Positions 50,880-62,521 are shown, counted from the stretch's first letter. The stretch: 64,000 nucleotides of DNA from Nitrospirota bacterium (GCA_963754875.1 CAVWHO010000020.1:224001-288000), one strand, 5' to 3'. The notes: generated from the sequence alone by a model not told the origin. Numbers and translations: made by a program.

Positions 50880-51896
50880 TCAAGTCGATGAAAGTTTCAT
50901 CTCTCTCTTGCCCTGAATCCTGCTATCCTCAACGACACGGATTTTATCCAGCTTAAATTCTTTCATGAGTGATTTTATGTTTTCGCGCCGCTGACCTACG
51001 GCAAGAGAGATATCCTTGGGGTTTACGGAAAACTCTGCTGTAGTGTTTTCTCCTGTCCTCTTTTTCAGTGCAGACCGCATCTTATCCAGGAAAATTGCAG
51101 ACTCAACGAGCTGTCTAAAGGCAGGGTGAAAAGGGCCGGCAAGGATAGTACCCGGCTTCTCCAGCTCTTCCGTTGATTGCAGTCCTATTCGGATTACATC
51201 GATACCCGCGTGTTCAACTCTTATTACAGCATCTCGGCATAAGGCATACGGCCTCATCGAGTGTGAACGGCCGATATGATCCGTTTCTGTAAAGTTTTTC
51301 AAGCGGTGTGCCTTTGATTACGAGCACAGGATAGAGCCGGACGAAATCGGGTTTCATCGAATGACGGTGTCGATGGTCTTTCTGAAGAAAGTTATTTGCT
51401 CGTATCGCCCGGGAGGCCCGGCATGAGTTGAAGCCCGACTGTAAATTCATGCTCTTTAAGAAGCTTTTACCGCGTTTATCGTATCGTCTGCCGCTGTGAC
51501 CGCGACCGGCGTTGATCAATACGGTGTCATCCATGGATTGAGCGCCGAGTTCAATGACCGTAACATGATGCTCTTTGAGGAGTGATAGTATCTCCTTGCT
51601 GATGCAGTCAGGACGCGTGGAAAGCCTGATAGTGCGGACTCGTGCTGACTGAATAAAGGGACGGACGGTTTCGAGATAGGTTTGCTGTACTTCGAGTGGC
51701 AGAGCGGTAAAGCTTCCCCCGTAGAATGCAATTTCGACAGCGTTCAGCGGAACGATGAGTGCTTAAATAGCGATTGATCTTGTCAGGGATGGTTGATGCA
51801 TCATCGGGGTCGGTTCTGTCCCGTAATATTTTTCTGGTTGCAAAATACGCACTGATGCGGGCAACCGGAGTGGGGGATGAAGAAAGGGATGATCAT
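50880..51896 (-). CDS. Radical SAM protein (Elp3-like), multiple apparent frameshifts
   Basis: IIPFFIPHSGCPHQCVFCNQ, FVRLYPVLVIKGT, IRIGLQ, AGPFHPAFRQLVES; follows rnc. Confidence 0.78.
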
Positions 51897-51970
51897 GGGA
51901 ACAGTTGGCAGAAGAGAGTAGATAGGAGACAGGGGAGGAACTGGATTATTTCCCTGTACTCGTTTGCTGC

Positions 51971-52669
51971 CTACTGCTGTTTGTCTTCTCGAAGTCTTTC
52001 CAGCGCTTCTTTTGCCGCTTTCTGTTCGGCTTCCTTTTTGCTTTTGCCGATGCCGTGACCGTATACGTTTTCCTTTAACGGAAAGCTCGACTTCAAACTG
52101 TTTCTGGTGATCGGGGCCGGTCTCGGACACGATCCGGTATTCGGGAAGCTGCTTCAGCCGCTCTTGGCACAGTTCCTGGAGTTCGGTCTTGTAATCGAGC
52201 GTGCCGCGGGACGTGCAGGTTTTTTTAACCATCTCTTCGAAGAACCGGATGACGAATGCTTCCACAGCTGCATTGCCTGCATCGAGATAAATGGAGGCGA
52301 TGAGCGCTTCAAGACAGTTCGCGAGCAAGCGAGTCCTTGTCCCTTCCGCCGGTCTGTTCTTCTCCTTTGCCGAGCAGCAGGTAGCTGCCAAGACCGATTT
52401 CCCGGGCAACGGAGGCGAGGGCGGGCTCGCTCACGACAGCAGCGCGCAGCCGCGAGAGGTCGCCCTCGTTCGAATCGGGACAGTTTTTCATCAGGTATTG
52501 ACTGATCACGAGACCGAGAACGGCGTCGCCGAGGAACTCGAGCCGTTCGTTGTGGGCAGGAAACCCGGTTTTCGTTTGCAAAGGACTTGTGCGTCAGCGC
52601 CCGTTCGAGCAGTTCCGGGTCCTTGAACTGATGGGAAATCCGATGCTGCATGTCCGAAAGGGGCGGCAT
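51971..52669 (-). CDS. rnc: Ribonuclease III (multiple apparent frameshifts)
   Basis: [46 protein letters not shown]. Confidence 0.9.
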
Positions 52670-52670
52670 G

Positions 52671-53914
52671 TTATTTGCGGAAGCGTTTAAAGATCAGGCA
52701 CGCATTGGTGCCGCCGAAGCCGAAGGAATTCGACATAGCCACATCCACCTGCACGTGTCTCGCTTTATTGGGGATATAGTCCAGATCGCACTCTGGATCG
52801 GGGTTATCGAGGTTGATGGTCGGCGGCAGGACGCCGCGGTCCAAGGCCAGGACGGAGACAACGGCCTCGACGCCGCCGGCAGCGCCGAGCAGGTGGCCGG
52901 TCATGGATTTCGTGGAGCTGACCGGTATCTTATAGGCATAGTCGCCGAAGACGGTCTTGATGGCAATGCTTTCGAGCTCGTCGCCGTACTTCGTGGATGT
53001 GCCGTGTGCATTGATGTAGCCCATTTCCGTGGGAGCGATGCCTGCGTCCTTGATCGCCAGTTTCATGCACCGCGCGGCCCCTTCGCCGTTCGGAGCCGGG
53101 GAGGTTATGTGGTAGGCGTCTCCCGAGGCGCCGTAGCCGATCAGTTCCGCATGGATGCGCGCACCTCGCGCTATTGCGGACTCCATTTCTTCGAGGATCA
53201 ACGACGCCGGAGCCTTCGCCCATGATGAACCCGTCGCGGTCGGTGTCGAAGGGACGGCTTGCGCGCTGGGGCTCATTGTTCCGCGTGGACAGGGCCTTCA
53301 TGGCATTGAATCCGCCGACGCCGAGCGGGCAGATGCAGGACTCGGTGCCGCCGGCGATCATGGCATCGGCGTCTCCGCGCTCGATGGTCCTGAACGCTTC
53401 GCCGATGGAGTGGGTCCCCGTTGCACATGCCGTGACGACACAGATGTTAGGACCCTTGGCGCCGTAGCGGATGGAGAGTATCCCCGCAGCTTCATTGATG
53501 ATCAGCATGGGGATAAAGAAGGGGGTTATCTTGCGAAAACCCCGCTCGAGATAGACCTTGTGGTACTTTTCAATGGCAGGGAGTCCGCCCATGCCCGCGC
53601 TGACCATGACACCGACGCGCTCCGCATTCTCCTCGGTGATCTTGAGTCCCGCACGAGTCCATGGCCATCTGGCTTGCGGCTATCGCCAGATGAATAAAGC
53701 GGTCCATTTTTTTGATCTCTTTGAGCTCGATGTATTTCTCGGGCTCGAAGCCGTGGATCTCGCCTGCGATCTGCGTCGGAATATTCTTGTCCTCGAACTG
53801 CGTGATCGGGCCGATGCCCGACTTGCCGTTGATCAAGCCTTCCCAACTTGTTTCCGTATCAAGTCCGACCGGGGTGATCATCCCGATGCCGGTGACGACA
53901 ACTCTTCTTTTCAA
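52671..53914 (-). CDS. fabF: 3-oxoacyl-ACP synthase II (two apparent frameshifts)
   Basis: [44 protein letters not shown]. Confidence 0.93.
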
Positions 53915-54041
53915 AAGAGGGTTCCTCCTGGATAAAAATCCGAAAAGCCAAAAAACCAGCCCCCGCTCGAGCGGAAGAGGTCTTCTGGCTTTTTGGAATT
54001 ATGGTTCCTGTAGTTTGTATTTCCGTTGCTGGAGAACGCCG

Positions 54042-54308
<267 letters not shown>

Positions 54309-54358
54309 TTAAGACTTGATTGATCGTGTATGGTGCGTTGTGAAAATCGATTACTCGT

Positions 54359-55099
54359 TTACATGTACATTCCGCCGTTCACGTGGATCACCTGGCCGGT
54401 GATATACGACGCCCACGGCGAGGCGAGGAACCTGACGGCATTTGCCACGTCCTGCGGCGTGCCGAGCTTGCCCATGGGAATCTGCTTCGCCAGCTCCTGC
54501 CTTACATTCTCGGACAGAGCCTGGGTCATGGCCGTATCGATGAAGCCCGGGGCAACGGCATTTGCCGTGATGCCTCGGTTCGCGTATTCACGGGCAATGG
54601 TCTTTGTCAGCCCGATGAGGCCGGCTTTGGAAGCTACATAGTTAGCCTGGCCGGCGTTCCCCATCGCGCCGACGATCGAGGCAATATTGATGATGGTTCC
54701 CGCACGCTGCTTGGACATGTACTTGAGTGCAGCCTTCGTGCAGAGGAACGAACCTTTCAGGTTGATGCTGAGCACCAGGTCCCAATCCTCATCCTTCATA
54801 CGGAGGATGAGGCCGTCGCGGGTGATGCCTGCATTATTCACCAGGATATCAATTCTGCCGAACTTTTCTATTACCTGGTCGATCATGGCCGTGACATCAG
54901 CGGAAGCGGCCACGTTCGCCTTGAGGGCCAGTGATTTTCTGCCTTTGGTCTCGATATCTCCGGCGGTTTTTTGTGCGGCATCGAGGTTAACATCGCAGAT
55001 GGCGACATCGGCGCCATCGTTCGCAAGAGCAAGGGCGATGTCCCTGCCGATCCCCTGGGCAGCTCCGGTGACGAGGGCGATTTTACCAGATAAGCTCAT
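54359..55099 (-). CDS. fabG: 3-oxoacyl-ACP reductase
   Basis: TGAAQGIG, NNAGITRD, GNAGQANYVASK, PGFIDT. Confidence 0.96.
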   Translation of the reverse strand: MSLSGKIALVTGAAQGIGRDIALALANDGADVAICDVNLDAAQKTAGDIETKGRKSLALKANVAASADVTAMIDQVIEKFGRIDILVNNAGITRDGLILRMKDEDWDLVLSINLKGSFLCTKAALKYMSKQRAGTIINIASIVGAMGNAGQANYVASKAGLIGLTKTIAREYANRGITANAVAPGFIDTAMTQALSENVRQELAKQIPMGKLGTPQDVANAVRFLASPWASYITGQVIHVNGGMYM

Positions 55100-55217
55100 G
55101 AACTCCTCCAGAGACAATTCAAAGATCCAGCCATACTCCTCGCAGACATCCGAAAGGCAGATGCACGTCTTGAGTCAATTTCCTGGCGTCCTCTGTGTCG
55201 TTGCGAGAATTATACAG

Positions 55218-56150
55218 CTATATTCCCAGTGTGGTCAGTGTGTCGTTCATGCTCTTCTGGTCTTCGACATTCAGAATTTTTGCGTCTTTGGCGATCCGCC
55301 TGACAAGACCCGAGAGCACTTTGCCGGGGCCGATTTCAATAAAGGTGTCGCATCCGTCAGCTACCATCGCGCTGATTGAGTCTTCCCAGTACAGGGGAGC
55401 GCTGATCTGTTTGACGAGCGACGGCCTCAGCTCCGATGCCGTGCGCAGGAACTTGGCGTCGGCGTTGTTCACGATCGGGAAACGGAGGTCGCGAATCGTT
55501 GTTTTTTCCAGCTCCCGCGCAAGTGCGATGCCGGCCTGTTTCATCAAGGCACAGTGTGAGGGAACGCTTACCGCGAGAGGGATGACTTTTTTCGCCCCTC
55601 TGGATTTTGCAAGCTCCATCGCTTTTTCGACAGCAGCTGTTTCGCCGGCAATTACTATTTGGCCCGGAGTGTTGTAATTTGCAGGGGCAACTATACCATT
55701 TTTAGCAGCTTCAAGGCAAGTTTTTTCTACGTCCTGCCGGTCCATGCCCAGAATAGCGGCCATGAGTCCCGATCCCGCGGGAACTGCTTCCTGCATAAAT
55801 CGCCCTCTTTTTTGGACCAATGCCACGGCGTCTTTGAACTCGAAGCCATCTGCCGCGGTGATTGCCGTATATTCGCCGAGGCTGTGACCGGCTGCAGCCG
55901 CTGCCGTCAAACCTCTCCGTTCAAGAGGCTGCAAGATCGCCATACTCGCCGCCAGAATGGCAGGTTGTGTGTTTTCCGTGAGGTTCAGTTTTTCGACAGG
56001 GCCGTCTATGCACAGACGCGCAAGATCATACCCGAGCGCGGTACTTGCTCTGTCGAAAACTTCTTTGGATTCCGGGAAATTCTCTATAAATTCTTTTGCC
56101 ATCCCGACATACTGGGAACCCTGGCCGGGAAAGATGAATGCGATTTTCAT
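55218..56150 (-). CDS. fabD: Malonyl-CoA:ACP transacylase
   Basis: FPGQGSQ, TQPAI, GHSLGEY, EIGPGKVL. Confidence 0.96.
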   Translation of the reverse strand: MKIAFIFPGQGSQYVGMAKEFIENFPESKEVFDRASTALGYDLARLCIDGPVEKLNLTENTQPAILAASMAILQPLERRGLTAAAAAGHSLGEYTAITAADGFEFKDAVALVQKRGRFMQEAVPAGSGLMAAILGMDRQDVEKTCLEAAKNGIVAPANYNTPGQIVIAGETAAVEKAMELAKSRGAKKVIPLAVSVPSHCALMKQAGIALARELEKTTIRDLRFPIVNNADAKFLRTASELRPSLVKQISAPLYWEDSISAMVADGCDTFIEIGPGKVLSGLVRRIAKDAKILNVEDQKSMNDTLTTLGI

Positions 56151-56270
56151 GAAGTATGACCTCGAAAAATCTTGAGCGCTGCAGTTTGTCGCAGCTTAAA
56201 GAGATAAAAGGCTACCGAGGGATAACCCGTATTCTTTGCTTTATCTGAAGACAAAAGAACTTGTATTCAG

Positions 56271-57461
56271 TTATCCCCGCATTTCCCGGATCTTCTTGAT
56301 CATAATCGGGACAACTTCGTGGACGTCACCGACGATGCCGTACGTAGCCACGTTAAAGATGGGCGCGTCAGGATCTTTGTTGATGGCCACAATCACTTCC
56401 GACGACTGCATGCCGGCAACGTGCTGGATAGCACCGGATATTCCGCAGGCAATATAGAGCTTAGGGCAAACGGTCTTGCCGGTCTGACCTACCTGGTGGG
56501 GATAGGGGACCCATCCTTCGTCAACAGCGCCTCTCGTCGCAGCAACGGCGCCGCCGAGCGCCTTGGCGAGTTCTGCAACAAGCTCGAAGTTTTTAGCGCT
56601 ACCCAAACCACGGCCTCCAGCCACGATAATATCGGCCTCACATATGTTCACCGTCTCTCCGATCTCTTCTATGGTTTTGATGACTTTGGTGCGGAGATCG
56701 CCGGACTGGGTATAGCGCACGTTAATAACGTCCCCGGTCCGGGAGTCGTTGTGCGGAGCTGGTTTCATGACCTTGTGTCTGACCGTTGCCATCTGCGGAC
56801 GGTGGTTCGGGGTTACAATGGTGGCCATAATGTTTCCGCCGAAGGCAGGCCGGGTCTGGTGGAGGTGGCCGGTTTCCGCATCAATATCGAGGGCCGTACA
56901 ATCGGCAGTCAACCCGGTGTACAGTGATGACGCAACTTTGGGGAAGAAGGAGCGGCCGATCGCTGTTGCGCCGGCAAGGATGACCTCCGGTTTATGTTGT
57001 TTCGCAAGCGTTGTCAGGACCGCAGCATAAGAATCGTCGTTGAAATCCTTGAGTGCCGGGTCGTCGGCAACATAGACAATGTCTGCGCCGTGGGCGATGA
57101 GATCCTGCACCTTGTCCTTGATGCCGTGACCGATGAACACGGCAGAGAGCTTTGTTTTCTTTTTGTCGGCGAGCTTCCTGCCCTCACCGAGGAGTTCCAG
57201 GGCCACGCTGGCGACGTCCCCTTTGTGTTGTTCTGCGAAGACCCACACGCCCTTGTAGGCTGACAGATCGGCAGCCGGCGCCGTAGCTTCGTCAATCTTC
57301 TCGATGGCTTTGAATTCGCAGACTTCAACGCAGGCCCCGCACATGGTGCAGGCCTCGGTTATGAATGCCTTGCCCTCTCGCATTTCGATTGCGCCGAAGG
57401 GGCAAGCCGTCACGCAGGTTTCGCAGGACGTGCACTTATCGGATATGACTCGAACGCTCAC
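56271..57461 (-). CDS. etfA: Electron transfer flavoprotein alpha subunit with N-terminal 2[4Fe-4S] ferredoxin domain
   Basis: CTSCETCVTACP and CTMCGACVEVC; GLTADCT, TRPAFGGN, QVGQTGKTV, GISGAIQH. Confidence 0.94.
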   Translation of the reverse strand: MSVRVISDKCTSCETCVTACPFGAIEMREGKAFITEACTMCGACVEVCEFKAIEKIDEATAPAADLSAYKGVWVFAEQHKGDVASVALELLGEGRKLADKKKTKLSAVFIGHGIKDKVQDLIAHGADIVYVADDPALKDFNDDSYAAVLTTLAKQHKPEVILAGATAIGRSFFPKVASSLYTGLTADCTALDIDAETGHLHQTRPAFGGNIMATIVTPNHRPQMATVRHKVMKPAPHNDSRTGDVINVRYTQSGDLRTKVIKTIEEIGETVNICEADIIVAGGRGLGSAKNFELVAELAKALGGAVAATRGAVDEGWVPYPHQVGQTGKTVCPKLYIACGISGAIQHVAGMQSSEVIVAINKDPDAPIFNVATYGIVGDVHEVVPIMIKKIREMRG

Positions 57462-57567
57462 GGGGAACTCCTTAAGCCAGAAGACAGATGTCAGAGGACA
57501 GATGACGGATTGTTACTCTCATCTTACGGTTTTGTCTGGTTTCTGAATCTCGCTTTTGTCATCTGTT

Positions 57568-58353
57568 TTAAATAAACGATTGCTCTTTCAACTTTGAAAT
57601 GACAGTAGTGATTTGATCTTCCATGCTCCCGGTCAGAACCTCTCGCTGGCCGCGGGCCGCGGGCGGGAATATTTTTACGACCTTCGTGGGAGAACCCTTG
57701 AGCCCGCATTTGCTGTCGTCGGCGCCGATATCCTTGGCGTTCCAGCTGGTTACCTTCAGGCTTTTGGCCTTCATCTTGCCCTTGAGAGAAGGTACGCGGG
57801 GTTGGTTGATTTCTTTTACAACCGTGATGAGCGCGGGAAGGGACGTTTCAACGACATCATATCCCTCGTCCATCAGCCGTTCAGCCAACATCTTTTTCCC
57901 CTCGATTTGTTCGATCTTCTTTATATACGCGACGAAGGGAATGCCGAGCATATCAGCAGTTTCCGGACCGACTTGCGCTGTGTCTCCATCGATTGCCTGT
58001 TTGCCGGCAATGATCAGGTCGTAATCAGCTATTTTCTTAATTCCCTGGGAAAGAGCATAGGACGTGGCCCAGGTATCCGCACCGGCAAATGCCCTATCGG
58101 AGAGGAGCACGACGTCGTCTACTCCGAGAGAAATGGCTTCTTTCAGCGCCTCAGCCGCCTGGGGCGGGCCCATGGTGACTGCGGTAACCTTGCCGCCGTG
58201 TTTTTCCCGAAGACGGAGAGCCTCTTCGATGGCATACATGTCAAAGGGGTTGATGATGCTCGGAACCCCGTCGCGGATAAGCGTGTTGGTCTCGCGGTTT
58301 ATTTTGACTTCCGATGTGTCCGGAACCTGTTTTACCAGGACGATGATGTTCAT
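57568..58353 (-). CDS. etfB: Electron transfer flavoprotein beta subunit
   Basis: KQVPDT, INPFD, DRAFAGADTWAT, GKQAIDGDTAQVGP, GLKGSPT. Confidence 0.95.
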   Translation of the reverse strand: MNIIVLVKQVPDTSEVKINRETNTLIRDGVPSIINPFDMYAIEEALRLREKHGGKVTAVTMGPPQAAEALKEAISLGVDDVVLLSDRAFAGADTWATSYALSQGIKKIADYDLIIAGKQAIDGDTAQVGPETADMLGIPFVAYIKKIEQIEGKKMLAERLMDEGYDVVETSLPALITVVKEINQPRVPSLKGKMKAKSLKVTSWNAKDIGADDSKCGLKGSPTKVVKIFPPAARGQREVLTGSMEDQITTVISKLKEQSFI

Positions 58354-58419
58354 GTATCCAATCCTTTTCTACGAAAGCACGAAGGGGTTTTTTTGACTTA
58401 ACGACTCTGTGCTGATTTT

Positions 58420-59577
58420 TTATTTCGTTCTTGTAGCTTCCTTAATCATGTCCAGCGCGACAACATTGCGCTGGATCTGGTTCGTGCCCTCGTAAATCTG
58501 GAGGATCTTGGCATCGCGCATCATTTTTTCGACCGGGTATTCCTTCATATATCCCGAACCGCCCATGACCTGGACCGCATCGGTGGTTACTTTCATCGCC
58601 ACATCGGTGGCAAACAGCTTGGCCATGGCCGAGGCGCGTGAAACGTCTTTTGCCCCGCTGTCGATAAAGCGCGCAACGGAATATACGAGAGAGCGTGCGG
58701 CTTCGGTTTGGGTTTGCATGTCGGCAAGCATGTGCTGGACGGCCTGGAACGAGGTGATCGGCTGGCCGAACTGGACCCGTTGCTTTGCAAATTTGATCGC
58801 TTCGTCAATGGCCCCCTGCGCAACACCTACGCCCTGGGCGCCCACACCCGTGCGGGAGCTATCGAGTGTCTTCATGGCAACGATGAACCCCATGCCTTCC
58901 TTGGCAATAATGTTTTCCTTAGGGATGCGGCAATTGTTGAAAATGAGTTCCGTGGTAGATGAAGCCCGAATGCCCATTTTGTTTTCCTTCTTGCCGAAGG
59001 TGAAGCCCGGCGTGCCCTTTTCCACGATGAATGCCGATGCGCCACGCGGACCTTTTGACCTGTCGGTGATTGCGATAACCGTGTAAATATCGGCTTCACC
59101 ACCGTTCGTGATCCACTGTTTGGTGCCGTTCAGTACGTACTCGCTGCCATCGAGCTTTGCCGTAGTCTGTACACCGCTGGCATCGCTGCCGGCGTTGGCC
59201 TCTGTTAGTCCGAAGGCCACGAGTTTCTTACCAGTCGCGATGTTGGGAAGATATTTTTTCTTCTGGGCGTCGGTGCCGTGGAGCAAGATGGGATACGTGC
59301 CGAGCGCATTGGCGGCATAGCTCGTCGAAACGCCCACACAGGCCTTGGAGAGCTCTTCTACGGCGATACAGAGTTCGAGGGATTGCTTGCCCAGCCCGCC
59401 ATATTCCTCGGGAATAAAGATGCCGAAGAGATCGGCCTGAGCCAGGGCTTTCATGATGTCGGTCGGAAATTTGTTCTGTTCATCGAGCTCGGCGCGAACG
59501 GGAACGATCTTTTCCACGGCTATCTGCCGGGCAAGGTCGCGTATCATGATCTGTTCTTCTGTCAGCAAATAGTCCAT
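58420..59577 (-). CDS. Acyl-CoA dehydrogenase family protein (Bcd-like)
   Basis: FGLTEANAGSD, KQWITNG, KMGIRAS, RVQFG, RDAKILQIYEGTNQIQR. Confidence 0.95.
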   Translation of the reverse strand: MDYLLTEEQIMIRDLARQIAVEKIVPVRAELDEQNKFPTDIMKALAQADLFGIFIPEEYGGLGKQSLELCIAVEELSKACVGVSTSYAANALGTYPILLHGTDAQKKKYLPNIATGKKLVAFGLTEANAGSDASGVQTTAKLDGSEYVLNGTKQWITNGGEADIYTVIAITDRSKGPRGASAFIVEKGTPGFTFGKKENKMGIRASSTTELIFNNCRIPKENIIAKEGMGFIVAMKTLDSSRTGVGAQGVGVAQGAIDEAIKFAKQRVQFGQPITSFQAVQHMLADMQTQTEAARSLVYSVARFIDSGAKDVSRASAMAKLFATDVAMKVTTDAVQVMGGSGYMKEYPVEKMMRDAKILQIYEGTNQIQRNVVALDMIKEATRTK

Positions 59578-59632
59578 TAAATCCTCCGCACGGTATCAAC
59601 AATTAATAATCTCAAATATATTTTTTCTTGCG

Positions 59633-60616
59633 TTACCAACGTACAAGAGCTGAAGCCCACGTCAGTCCTCCACCGAATGCTTCAAAAAGGAGGAGATGAT
59701 TTTCTTTAATTTTGCCGCTCCGGACCGCTTCGTCAAGGGCCATGGGGATGGAAGCGGCCGAGGTATTGCCGTATTTAGGAAGTGTCAGCACAACTTTTTC
59801 CATTGGCATATTGAGACGTTGTGCCATGGCTTGAATGATCCGCAGGTTCGCCTGGTGAGGAACGAGGAAGTCGATCTCTTCCGCTTTTACCTTGTTATAC
59901 TCCAGTGCTTCCTGGACGACGCCCTCAAGAGCCCTCACCGCGGCTTTGAACGTTTCATTGCCTTTCATCTTTATAAAATGCATGCGTTTATGGATTGTTT
60001 CGTGAGAGGTCTGGGTTCTGTGCTCCGCCGCCGGGAACATGGATCAAGGTTTCCCTGCGAACCGTCGGAATGGATGTGAGTGGAGAGAATGCCGCGCTTG
60101 CCCGTGTGCCGTTGGATGACTGCCGCACCTGCGCCGTCTCCGAAGAGAATGCAGGTCGAGCGATCCTCCCAGTCCGTATACCGCGACAGGACCTCGGCAC
60201 CGACGAGCAGGATGTTTTTATACATTTCAGATTTGATGTATGCGCTTGCAACGGACATCCCGTAGATAAAGCCTGAACAGGCGGCATAGATATCGAAGGC
60301 AGCGGCTTTTCGTGCCCCGAGTCTTTCCTGGAGCACGCACCCCAAGCTCGGCAGGATCATGTCCGGTGTCATGGTTGCTACTATGATAAGATCGATTTCT
60401 TCAGCGGCGAGCCCCGCGGCTTTGAGGGCTTTTTTGCTCGCTTCATAGGCAAGGTCCGATGTGGTCTGTCCCTTTTCCTGCGATCCTGCGCTCTTTAATG
60501 CCTGTTCGCTCGGTGATCCATTCGTCGGTGGTGTCAATAAGCTTTTCCAGATCCTGGTTCGTAATAATTTTTTTAGGTGCAAAGGATCCGGTTCCTGTTA
60601 TTCGTGCGTGAATCAT
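59633..60616 (-). CDS. fabH: 3-oxoacyl-ACP synthase III (apparent frameshifts)
   Basis: [48 protein letters not shown]. Confidence 0.92.
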
Positions 60617-61626
60617 TTAGTTCTCGTCAGCTCCATATTCTTTTCAATGTCCTCATGAATGTGTTTATTAACCTCGCTCTTGGCAAGCTCGGCGGCGACA
60701 CGAATCGCGTTCTTGATCGCCCGTCGGACGAGCGGCCGTGGCTGATGATGCTGATGCCGTTGATGCCCACGAGTGGTGCGCCGCCGTATTCCGCATAGTC
60801 GACCCGGCGTTTGAGCGAATCGAACGCCGGCCGCATTAACAGATAACCGAGTTTTCGCACCAGGCTCTTGCCGATACCCTCGCGGATAAAGAGGCCTATG
60901 GCTTCGACAACGGATTCGGAGACCTTGAGCACGACGTTCCCGACAAATCCGTCGCAGACGATCACATCGGCGTTGCCGGACATAACATCACGGCCCTCGA
61001 CGTTTCCGATGAAATTAAGCGAGGTCTCGGTCAGGAGTTTGAAAGCTTCCTTGGTCAGTTCGTTCCCTTTGGTTTCCTCCTCCCCGATGGAAAGGAGCCC
61101 CACACGGGGATTTGGAATTCTTAACAGATACTTCGCGTAGACTTCGCCCATAATGGCGAATTGCAAGAGGTGGTTTGGCTTGCAGTCCACGTTCGCGCCC
61201 ATATCGAGGATAATGGACGTGCCTTTAGTGGTCGGCATGAAGGTGGCAATGGCAGGCCGTTCCACGCCCTCAACCGACCCCAGAACAAAGAGCGAGGTTG
61301 CCATGGCTGCGCCGGTATGTCCCGCACTGATCACGGCGACTGCCTCTCCGTTTTTGACGAGATCGTTGGCCACCCGGATGGACGAATTTTTTTTCCTGCG
61401 AAAGACCGTAGCAGGCGAATCGAGCATGTCCACGACTTCGGCGGCATTTTGAATCTCTATGGGAAGCGTTTTTGCTTGAGGGTGCTTGTCTAATTCTGCC
61501 CGGACAATCTGTTCGATACCGACCAGGATTATCCCGACCTCCGTACTCCATTGCAGCCTGCACGGCACCTGCGATGACGGCATGCGGCGCGTTGTCCCCC
61601 CCCATTGCATCAACGGCAATCTTCAT
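60613..61626 (-). CDS. plsX: Phosphate acyltransferase PlsX (apparent frameshifts)
   Basis: [47 protein letters not shown]. Confidence 0.92.
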
Positions 61627-61644
61627 TCAGACTCCCTACAATAT

Positions 61645-61690
61645 AAAAGGCAAAGGGTCATACGGAAAAACAGTATCATCCCTTTGCCTT
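61645..61690 (-). terminator. Hairpin or terminator after rpmF
   Basis: 11-bp stem aaggcaaaggg/ccctttgcctt with a short T tail on the minus strand. Confidence 0.5.
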
Positions 61691-61705
61691 CGAACATGCT
61701 TCTGA

Positions 61706-61891
61706 CTATATCTGCTGAACAGTCATGACCTCACGGCCGTTATAGGTGCCGCAGGACAGACAGGCATGATGAGGCTGTTTGACCTCCTGACACTGCGGGC
61801 AGACCGTCAGGTTCGGGGCCATGAGTTTTTGTTTTTCTGTGCGTCTCTTGTCCCTGCGGGACTTGGAATGTCTGTGTTTTGGATTTGCCAT
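61706..61891 (-). CDS. rpmF: 50S ribosomal protein L32
   Basis: MANPKHRHSKSRRDKRR, CPQC...PHHAC.SCG.YNGR. Confidence 0.96.
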   Translation of the reverse strand: MANPKHRHSKSRRDKRRTEKQKLMAPNLTVCPQCQEVKQPHHACLSCGTYNGREVMTVQQI

Positions 61892-61908
61892 TTTTAGTAA
61901 TACTCCTT

Positions 61909-62426
61909 CTATTTTTTTAATAAATCCTTTAAAGCGGCAAAAGCACCGAAATCTCCCGGCCCACTCTGCTGGTGACCGCATTGCGTTTTGTTCAGATCCG
62001 TTCCGCAGACGCTGCAGAGCCCCTTGCATTCAGGATTGTGAAGCGGGACCATGGGGACGGCGATGAGCAACTGCTCCTTTACAATACTCGATCGGCTCGA
62101 TTTCATCGCCTTGATAGAACTCTATGTCGAGTTCTCCGGAAACCAGCTCATGCTCCGGCGCCGCACCAAGCGAATTGACCGGGGCCAGGTCAACGAGTCA
62201 ATTCGTTGTCTATCTTATAAGGAAAGCTTATCAGGCAACGGCTGCATTCAAGAACGGCAGTTGCCTGTACTCGCCCTGAAATATGGAGGATGCCTCTTCC
62301 TTCCGGTTTGATTCGCAGATCCGCTGTAAACTCCGCGATGTCAGCGCCCTTGTCGAACAAATCGAGCTTCTGCGCAAGCTCCAGGGTAAGCCCCTCTGGC
62401 GGTATGTCGTTGATTTTGATAGCCAT
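61909..62426 (-). CDS. YceD/DUF177 family protein (apparent frameshifts)
   Basis: ECSRCL, EQLLIAVPM.PLH..ECKGLC.VCG.DLN, FAALK; upstream of rpmF. Confidence 0.85.
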
Positions 62427-62521
62427 TTCTTTTTATTACCGGGGCTGTAAGATTGGAATTATATAGAGACAGCCATGTTTTGTCAAGAAAAAATACCGTT
62501 CTTTGCCCTGACCCAAGATAA

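Follow-up and report, generated by a model that had tools for sequence, protein, structure and literature searches.

An acyl-CoA dehydrogenase and ferredoxin-domain Etf module in the fatty-acid synthesis operon of Nitrospirota: a probable new class of enoyl-ACP reductase

The stretch of DNA analysed here (the window) is 64,000 nucleotides (nt) long and lies on contig C20 of a Nitrospirota bacterium assembly (genome G000; 4.3 Mb, 90% complete). Its minus strand carries a type II fatty-acid synthesis (fab) operon in the order yceD-rpmF-plsX-fabH-ACAD-etfB-etfA-fabD-fabG-acpP-fabF-rnc. The genes were assigned by profile matches, except that fabF was pieced together from tblastn matches and rnc was identified from ERLEFLGD, which we take to be its signature. 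Between fabH and fabD lie three genes, here called the module. The first encodes a flavoprotein of the acyl-CoA dehydrogenase (ACAD) family (58420..59577, minus strand), of 385 residues and predicted to be the catalytic subunit. It is followed on the same strand by the two subunits of an electron-transfer flavoprotein (Etf), namely EtfB (57568..58353, 261 residues) and EtfA (56271..57461, 396 residues, GTG start), the latter with an N-terminal ferredoxin domain. An earlier reading made from the sequence alone (the sequence-only reading) had placed these genes between fabH and fabD with gaps of about 55–120 nt around the insert. All three are indeed intact there, their reading frames unbroken and free of any net frameshift, and the measured gaps are 55 nt (fabH-ACAD), 66 nt (ACAD-etfB), 106 nt (etfB-etfA) and 120 nt (etfA-fabD). 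On the basis of the gene content, linkage and distribution described below, we hypothesise that the trio is the enoyl-acyl carrier protein (enoyl-ACP) reductase of type II fatty-acid synthesis and represents a new class of that enzyme. We give this a probability of roughly three in four.

The other features of the operon lie on the same strand. Just upstream of yceD there is a sigma-70-type promoter-like site (TTGACA-17-TATAAT, 62458..62486), recognised by its 12/12 consensus match only, which is a candidate start of the operon transcript. Then come yceD (DUF177; 61909..62426), rpmF for ribosomal protein L32 (PF01783; 61706..61891), plsX (60617..61626) and fabH (59633..60616). Beyond the module are fabD, the malonyl-CoA:ACP transacylase (55218..56150, TIGR00128 over cut-off), fabG, the 3-oxoacyl-ACP reductase (54359..55099, TIGR01830 over cut-off), acpP, an acyl carrier protein (ACP) with 8 basic and 19 acidic residues (54042..54284), and fabF (52671..53914). 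Compared with a relative whose ACAD is 97% identical, yceD, plsX, fabH (three of them) and fabF contain single-base indels which leave them frameshifted or in pieces, and which are most likely assembly errors. In the same region (51800–62430) rnc is also in pieces, and the assembly has gaps as well as sequence errors, tyrS not being found in it. A weak terminator-like hairpin occurs in the etfA-fabD gap (56209..56228). It is not counted against co-transcription, since terminator-like sites are near chance level in the region (16 seen, 12.8 ± 4.2 expected).

No known enoyl-ACP reductase was found beside these genes or elsewhere in the genome. The sequence-only reading had noted that fabI, fabK, fabV and fabL are missing from the window; searches with profiles and with real proteins from other genomes found none of them there, nor in the rest of the assembly, and a real FabV protein used as query found nothing in either. 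Two sets of candidates were set aside. Seven other classical short-chain dehydrogenases/reductases (SDRs) were considered as FabI or FabL, and neither is among the best 25 families of any of them (epimerase-length SDR matches lie outside that scan). Three matches over cut-off to the nitronate monooxygenase (NMO) family, considered as FabK, are IMP dehydrogenase and thiamine enzymes. The genome does contain a zinc-free quinone reductase-like medium-chain dehydrogenase/reductase (MDR; locus L206), which is a possible enoyl reductase. It has no FabX-like gene of the kind found in several relatives, but this is probably an assembly gap, and the absence was dropped as evidence because the neighbouring tyrS is missing too.

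As the window's own assembly is incomplete, a sample of 161 Nitrospirota genomes from 26 families was searched, consisting of 160 genomes at least 92% complete and that of the window, and every query was run on all of it. The ACAD query matched 93 genomes at E ≤ 1e-95. Of these, 88 were kept at 72% identity or more, two of them partial, and five matches of 41–47% identity were set aside. EtfA orthologues are likewise present in 88 genomes with the same tallies by family, and both proteins occur in one copy each. FabI is found in 55 of the 161 genomes, and the 54 scoring 280–357 bits all lie outside the 88 module genomes. So do the four genomes with FabK over cut-off and the 15 with orthologues of a FabL-like SDR, whose best PDB match is 3OIC and whose best NCBIfam match is FabL, below cut-off; two further FabL-like matches at 33–34% identity were set aside. 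FabV occurs in none of the 161 genomes, in a search that was positive in 6 of 81 clostridial genomes. Counting FabI at 280 bits or more, FabK over cut-off, the FabL-like SDR and FabV, a known-type reductase is thus present in 0/88 module genomes, compared with 72/73 of the others (54 with FabI, 3 more with FabK and 15 with the FabL-like SDR). At the family level, the module is present in 16, and each of the other ten has a known-type reductase. One genome, G162, is left by elimination without the module or a FabI, FabK or FabL-like match, and may reflect an assembly gap.

The synteny of the module was surveyed across the species collection on the 80 best ACAD loci. In 38 of them a fab gene lies within 6 kb on the same strand, and many of the others are short or of a split-operon type. 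The titles of the fab-linked sequences name Nitrospirota, Desulfobulbaceae and other deltaproteobacteria, Actinomycetota, Margulisbacteria/Saganbacteria and Omnitrophota; one is Desulfogranum marinum DSM 2058 (L120). The gene order of the window recurs in relatives, for example at loci L045, L047, L048, L057, L077, L078 and L093, so that the position of the module is not due to chance. The operon is split in many module genomes, where the ACAD gene has changed its place and often follows hpt-queD-pmbA. Even in these broken-up operons etfA stands directly before fabD, in 33/33 of those fetched from 55 module genomes outside the window's family. The fabH-acd-etfBA-fabD order emphasised by the sequence-only reading is therefore conserved, its etfA-fabD end most persistently. 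In four intact operons from other families the ACAD is 71–75% identical to that of the window, a degree of conservation similar to that of FabG, FabF and AcpP and higher than that of FabD.

Other reductases occupy the same place. FabK lies between fabH and fabD in 4/4 genomes, and the FabL-like SDR fills this slot in 5/5 of those fetched, out of 15; the four FabI loci fetched have no fab gene nearby. The FabL-like protein (L157:6037-6846, with orthologues in G094, G117, G136 and G174) is divergent, scoring 162 bits against a cut-off of 328. The 15 genomes that have it contain neither FabI nor FabK, and it is a candidate, from sequence and position, for an uncharacterised enoyl-ACP reductase in its own right. 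Taken together, the missing canonical reductase, the synteny and the near mutual exclusion in Nitrospirota support the proposal, already made in the sequence-only reading, that the trio carries out enoyl reduction on ACP, and we regard that proposal as probably correct. FabK and FabL act on ACP-bound substrates. This bears on an alternative in which the module reduces CoA esters within the elongation cycle, with a transacylase shuttling acyl groups between ACP and CoA. The link to fabD is the most persistent of the module's links, as such a shuttle might lead one to expect, and the ACAD has the fold and sequence of CoA-acting enzymes, with no net shift in charge. It would need an extra transfer in every cycle, for which no gene is evident, and the enzymes with which the module exchanges work on ACP; we consider it very improbable.

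Several points weigh against the enoyl-ACP reductase reading. Related genomes are not independent, which limits the weight of the genome counts. One module genome, G093, has a divergent FabI-like gene (158 bits), located in a polyketide synthase-like cluster. The FabK model gives weak matches in 64 of the 88 module genomes, compared with 2 of the 54 FabI genomes (G042 left out), and in three module genomes (G018, G116 and G011) these matches reach 191–258 bits. The one weak match that was examined, in G001, is FabX-like. This suggests a different explanation, that a FabX-like flavoprotein of the NMO family, or another unrecognised enzyme, is the true reductase, with the module in an auxiliary role such as that of its electron partner. 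FabX-like proteins adjoin tyrS in G001 (L135:4346-5449) and G048 (L136), and three of the four cluster cysteines of Helicobacter pylori FabX align in them. Further FabX-like genes, whose products have a tail with four cysteines, are flanked by acpP and fabF at L086:11167-12147, L112:11197-12171 and L115:6309-7271, in actinobacterial and Margulisbacteria operons that also contain the module. These last could possibly belong to an anaerobic route to unsaturated fatty acids. However, FabX is described in the available sections of PMC8626469 as a dehydrogenase/isomerase, with a cluster domain where FabK has its NAD(P)H site. Moreover, three module genomes that are single contigs (G082, G102 and G105) have no NMO-family match other than frames of about 494 residues, the size of IMP dehydrogenase. 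For both reasons a FabX-like protein can hardly be the general reductase of the module genomes; if it were, the ACAD would be superfluous. We therefore rate this explanation as improbable.

The single-contig module genomes, five in all (G085, G082, G102, G105 and G048), also give information on the substrate. Thiolase and MaoC are found among them only in G105, an HgdD-type dehydratase in none of the five, and thiolase, crotonase, MaoC and HgdD have no match in G082, G102, G048 or G085. More widely, 49 of the 88 module genomes have no crotonase match at E ≤ 1e-25. FabZ was found in 5/5 genomes searched (G000, G082, G102, G105 and G048). The clearest cases are G082 and G102 (1.8–1.9 Mb), which have no NMO protein of FabK or FabX length and only two SDRs each. 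Of their four MDRs three were fetched; all three are of the zinc type, and the zinc-free quinone reductase-like form is not seen among them. With FabZ present and the searched enzymes of CoA-ester pathways not found, enoyl-ACP would appear to be the only evident enoyl thioester in these two genomes, and the module the only evident enzyme to reduce it.

The sequence-only reading had offered as one alternative that the module supplies acyl-CoA primers, such as butyryl-CoA or branched acyl-CoA, to FabH. This is weakened by the single-contig genomes, in which the searched enzymes needed on the CoA side are not matched (G082, G102, G048 and G085). The module does adjoin fabH in intact operons, and the closest solved ACAD is a butyryl-CoA dehydrogenase. 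On the other hand, the ACAD gene lies away from fabH in many genomes, and primer supply would leave both the missing enoyl reductase and the exchange of the slot unexplained. We therefore think it highly unlikely.

A catabolic or respiratory role has also been considered, in which the module is a complex for outside enoates or for beta-oxidation, like the caffeyl-CoA reductase-Etf complex (CarCDE) or butyryl-CoA dehydrogenase (Bcd), and lies near the fab genes by history. Its EtfA has the architecture of CarE, and AMP-binding enzymes, which may activate outside enoates as substrates for it, number 3–11 in each of the five single-contig genomes (5–6 in G082 and G102). The branch of Bacillota described below, in which the module lies away from the fab genes and the genomes have FabI or FabK as well, also fits such a role. 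Against this, the module is universal and single-copy in 16 families, including genomes of 1.6–2 Mb, and it excludes the known reductases. The window's genome moreover has a separate beta-oxidation cluster (L011, contig C11), with its own frameshifted ACAD, its own EtfAB and a membrane Fe-S oxidoreductase. We hold a catabolic role to be hardly likely. It is worth adding that another contig of this genome, C16, has a single open reading frame (ORF) of 2639 residues (L012:220-8139) in which an ETF-alpha domain is joined to an FAD oxidoreductase and an acyl-CoA dehydrogenase. This one protein has the appearance of a complete ACAD-Etf-oxidoreductase chain, and many genomes of the window's family and of family f5 have matching ORFs of similar size.

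The ACAD itself was analysed further. The proteins of the module match only ACAD and ETF families, and no SDR or NMO TIM-barrel family. By sequence and by fold, the ACAD is closest to the bifurcating butyryl-CoA dehydrogenases (5OL2, 427 bits; 4L1F): it is 53% identical to Bcd, and its single-chain AlphaFold model (mean predicted confidence, pLDDT, 92) returns the ACAD fold in a fold search, with a template modelling (TM) score of 0.94 to Bcd. The predicted catalytic residue, Glu363 in a YEGT motif, is invariant in 57/57 aligned rows. In a tree of 115 sequences, the 89 rows with at least 64% identity group in a single clade (SH-aLRT 100), separate from the 26 others, several of which adjoin genes for thiolase, crotonase or hydroxyacyl-CoA dehydrogenase. 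A one-residue gap in helix E is present in 89/89 rows of the clade and in 3/26 of the outgroup. Helix E of the clade is ungapped relative to medium-chain acyl-CoA dehydrogenase, and one residue shorter than in 5OL2, 4L1F, 1BUC and 6FAH (Bcd and CarC). In Djordjevic's 1995 structure of M. elsdenii Bcd the extra residue is said to make the cleft shallow. In the available text of PMC10925408, helix E is tied to cavity size. The shorter helix is no more than a hint: the very-long-chain acyl-CoA dehydrogenase also has the longer helix E, so that its length is no strict rule. Five Lys/Arg positions are specific to the clade in the alignment (K23, R28, K117, K236 and R303), and R178 is invariant.

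Some properties of the protein speak against a bifurcating enoyl-ACP reductase. The fold model cannot be told apart from Bcd, which acts on CoA esters, and does not separate ACP from CoA use, and the clade is not more basic in net charge than outgroup members from CoA contexts (median −2 compared with −3). Further, the best NCBIfam match of the ACAD is acryloyl-CoA reductase (AcrC; 478 bits, cut-off 640), an enzyme which is presumably non-bifurcating despite its similar Etfs. The module ACAD is over no NCBIfam cut-off, and all three AcrABC equivalog cut-offs are missed by the module (478/640, 243/475 and 364/600 bits).

There is precedent for the ACAD fold acting on thioesters bound to carrier proteins, in RedW, PigA, AnaB and MbtN (by NCBIfam and PDB names). 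These enzymes are oxidative and belong to secondary metabolism, and the RedW, PigA and MbtN models score below cut-off on the module ACAD (268/650, 248/500 and 88/700 bits). Their existence lends some colour to the suggestion that the module oxidises acyl-ACP as an entry to anaerobic desaturation, as FabX does. The operon has no isomerase gene, a FabX-like protein is already present in many module genomes, and the module genomes would then be left with no enoyl reductase that could be found. Such a role is extremely improbable.

In the part of PMC9232219 that is available, bifurcating Etfs are marked by the EtfB motifs DGDTAQVGP, RxFxG and SPT and by an arginine of EtfA, and a ferredoxin domain is required as a relay in Ldh-EtfAB. 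All the motifs named there are found in the module. EtfB has DGDTAQVGP, the motif of the bifurcating FAD (b-FAD), at residue 122, RAFAG (RxFxG, the NADH site) at 87 and SPT at 221; across 45 full EtfBs, DGDTxQVGP occurs in 45, RxFxG in 41 and SPT in 42. The best match of EtfB among solved sequences is CarD. In EtfA, Arg204 is part of a TRPA motif that CarE and A. fermentans EtfA also have, and it aligns with their arginine at N5 of b-FAD; the similarity to CarE extends over the full length (423 bits), including both cluster motifs. The two CxxCxxCxxxC motifs reported in the sequence-only reading are present, starting at residues 10 and 38, and both [4Fe-4S] motifs are kept in 35/36 full EtfAs. 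At two loci (L090:8040-8888 and L092:8101-8919) an ORF of about 280 residues with no Pfam match lies between etfB and etfA, and the module follows fabG-acpP-fabF.

By analogy with these Etfs, the trio could work as an enoyl-ACP reductase by flavin-based electron bifurcation, a proposal for which we see about even odds. The module may instead reduce enoyl-ACP without conserving energy, with the Etf passing both electrons of NADH to the ACAD, or with the ferredoxin domain serving as an input from reduced ferredoxin. The genomic evidence for a reductase role fits this equally well. The best NCBIfam match being AcrC also favours it, as does the EtfA at L110, which has 333 residues and no ferredoxin domain. 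It is made rather unlikely by the retention of every published bifurcation motif, by the two clusters in nearly all full EtfAs, and by the closest structures being the bifurcating CarE, CarD and Bcd.

Outside Nitrospirota the picture is mixed. Of 40 genomes with an ACAD of the clade, seven have FabI (5) or FabK (2), which counts against the module as a replacement for these enzymes. All seven fall in one Bacillota branch (11 rows, support 92), in which the module is not fab-linked. At L094, L096, L098, L101, L118 and L123, in this branch, ACAD-etfB-ferredoxin/etfA forms a stand-alone operon in genomes with FabI or FabK, and the module may there have another or a redundant job. The anticorrelation with known reductases predicted by the sequence-only reading thus holds in Nitrospirota (0/88 compared with 72/73) and fails in the Bacillota branch of the same ACAD clade. 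In 20 fab-linked genomes of other phyla there is no FabI at 300 bits and no FabK over cut-off. Here too there are points on the other side: fab-linked G193 has a FabK-like gene of 314–320 bits, and three fab-linked Desulfobulbaceae have divergent FabI-like genes (115–165 bits), one of which sits in a separate cluster of ketosynthase, FabZ and FabG genes. Five loci titled Lentisphaerae/Verrucomicrobiota (L089, L095, L104, L113 and L116) have an ACAD of the clade and no etf or fab genes within the locus.

A possible mechanism can be outlined, for which we infer the substrate, direction and coupling from the observed genes, motifs, linkage and distribution. The FabZ reaction forms trans-2-enoyl-ACP, and FabZ, whose gene is found, would supply the substrate. 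NADH would then reduce the b-FAD of EtfB, whose motifs are seen, by chemistry like that of Bcd-EtfAB, CarCDE and Ldh-EtfAB. One electron would pass through the a-FAD of EtfA to the flavin of the ACAD, while its partner would travel along the two [4Fe-4S] clusters of the same subunit to ferredoxin. Once this has happened twice, the ACAD flavin would reduce enoyl-ACP by hydride and proton transfer, with Glu363 as the donor; the residue is seen, and the direction and the specificity for ACP are predicted. By analogy with Bcd-EtfAB, the net reaction would be enoyl-ACP + 2 NADH + 2 oxidised ferredoxin → acyl-ACP + 2 NAD+ + 2 reduced ferredoxin.

Comparison with known systems indicates where the module stands. 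It resembles Bcd-EtfAB (C. difficile 5OL2; A. fermentans 4L1F and 4KPU) in the order ACAD-etfB-etfA, in the catalytic Glu and in the bifurcation motifs. It differs in lying in a biosynthetic operon, where its neighbours include no gene for thiolase, hydroxybutyryl-CoA dehydrogenase or crotonase, in the ferredoxin domain of EtfA, and in an ACAD of its own clade with the shorter helix E. With CarCDE of Acetobacterium woodii (6FAH) it shares the two-cluster ferredoxin domain of CarE. In contrast, its ACAD matches Bcd better (427 bits) than CarC (327 bits), CarC being 20th among solved sequences (and outside the tree), its operon has no CoA transferase, ligase or caffeate-activating genes, and its distribution is that of a housekeeping system. 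Towards FabI, FabK, FabL and FabV the predicted reaction is the same and the distribution complementary, FabK and the FabL-like SDR sharing its slot, whereas the module is unrelated in fold, has three subunits with FAD and Fe-S clusters, and is predicted to use 2 NADH and ferredoxin. H. pylori FabX is, in the sections of PMC8626469 already cited, also a flavoprotein with an Fe-S cluster, and it works on acyl-ACP at this redox step. It differs in being a dehydrogenase/isomerase of the TIM-barrel NMO family, and is a separate gene in many module genomes.

In the available text of PMC6085437, the enoyl-CoA reductases described as bifurcating are Bcd-Etf and Car; the terms 'fatty acid' and 'Nitrospir' do not occur there. 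No description of the module in a fab operon was found in the open-licence literature of PubMed Central and bioRxiv (subscription papers and supplements lie outside that search), and nothing was found in the same literature on ACP docking in ACADs. The module appears to work like Bcd-EtfAB and CarCDE, differs from both in context and orthology, and belongs to no known enoyl-ACP reductase family; on these comparisons it is likely a new class.

The sources label the module ACAD genes as butyryl-CoA dehydrogenase or AidB-like. If the enoyl-ACP reductase reading is true, such labels in metagenome bins should not be taken to indicate butyrate metabolism or beta-oxidation. It would also close a hole in the pathway of 88 of the 161 Nitrospirota genomes and of their fab-linked anaerobe relatives, which have FabZ-type synthesis without a recognisable enzyme for the last step, and would add to the enoyl-ACP reductases a structurally unrelated class, in which an ACAD acts as a reductase on carrier-bound chains. 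The fullest form of the proposal is a widespread class in several anaerobe phyla, a Bcd/Car-type complex retargeted to ACP so that each two-carbon extension yields reduced ferredoxin, and for this we find the balance to be level. If the module does bifurcate, energy conservation of this type would enter anabolism, with a gain that is probably modest, the flux being small compared with catabolism.

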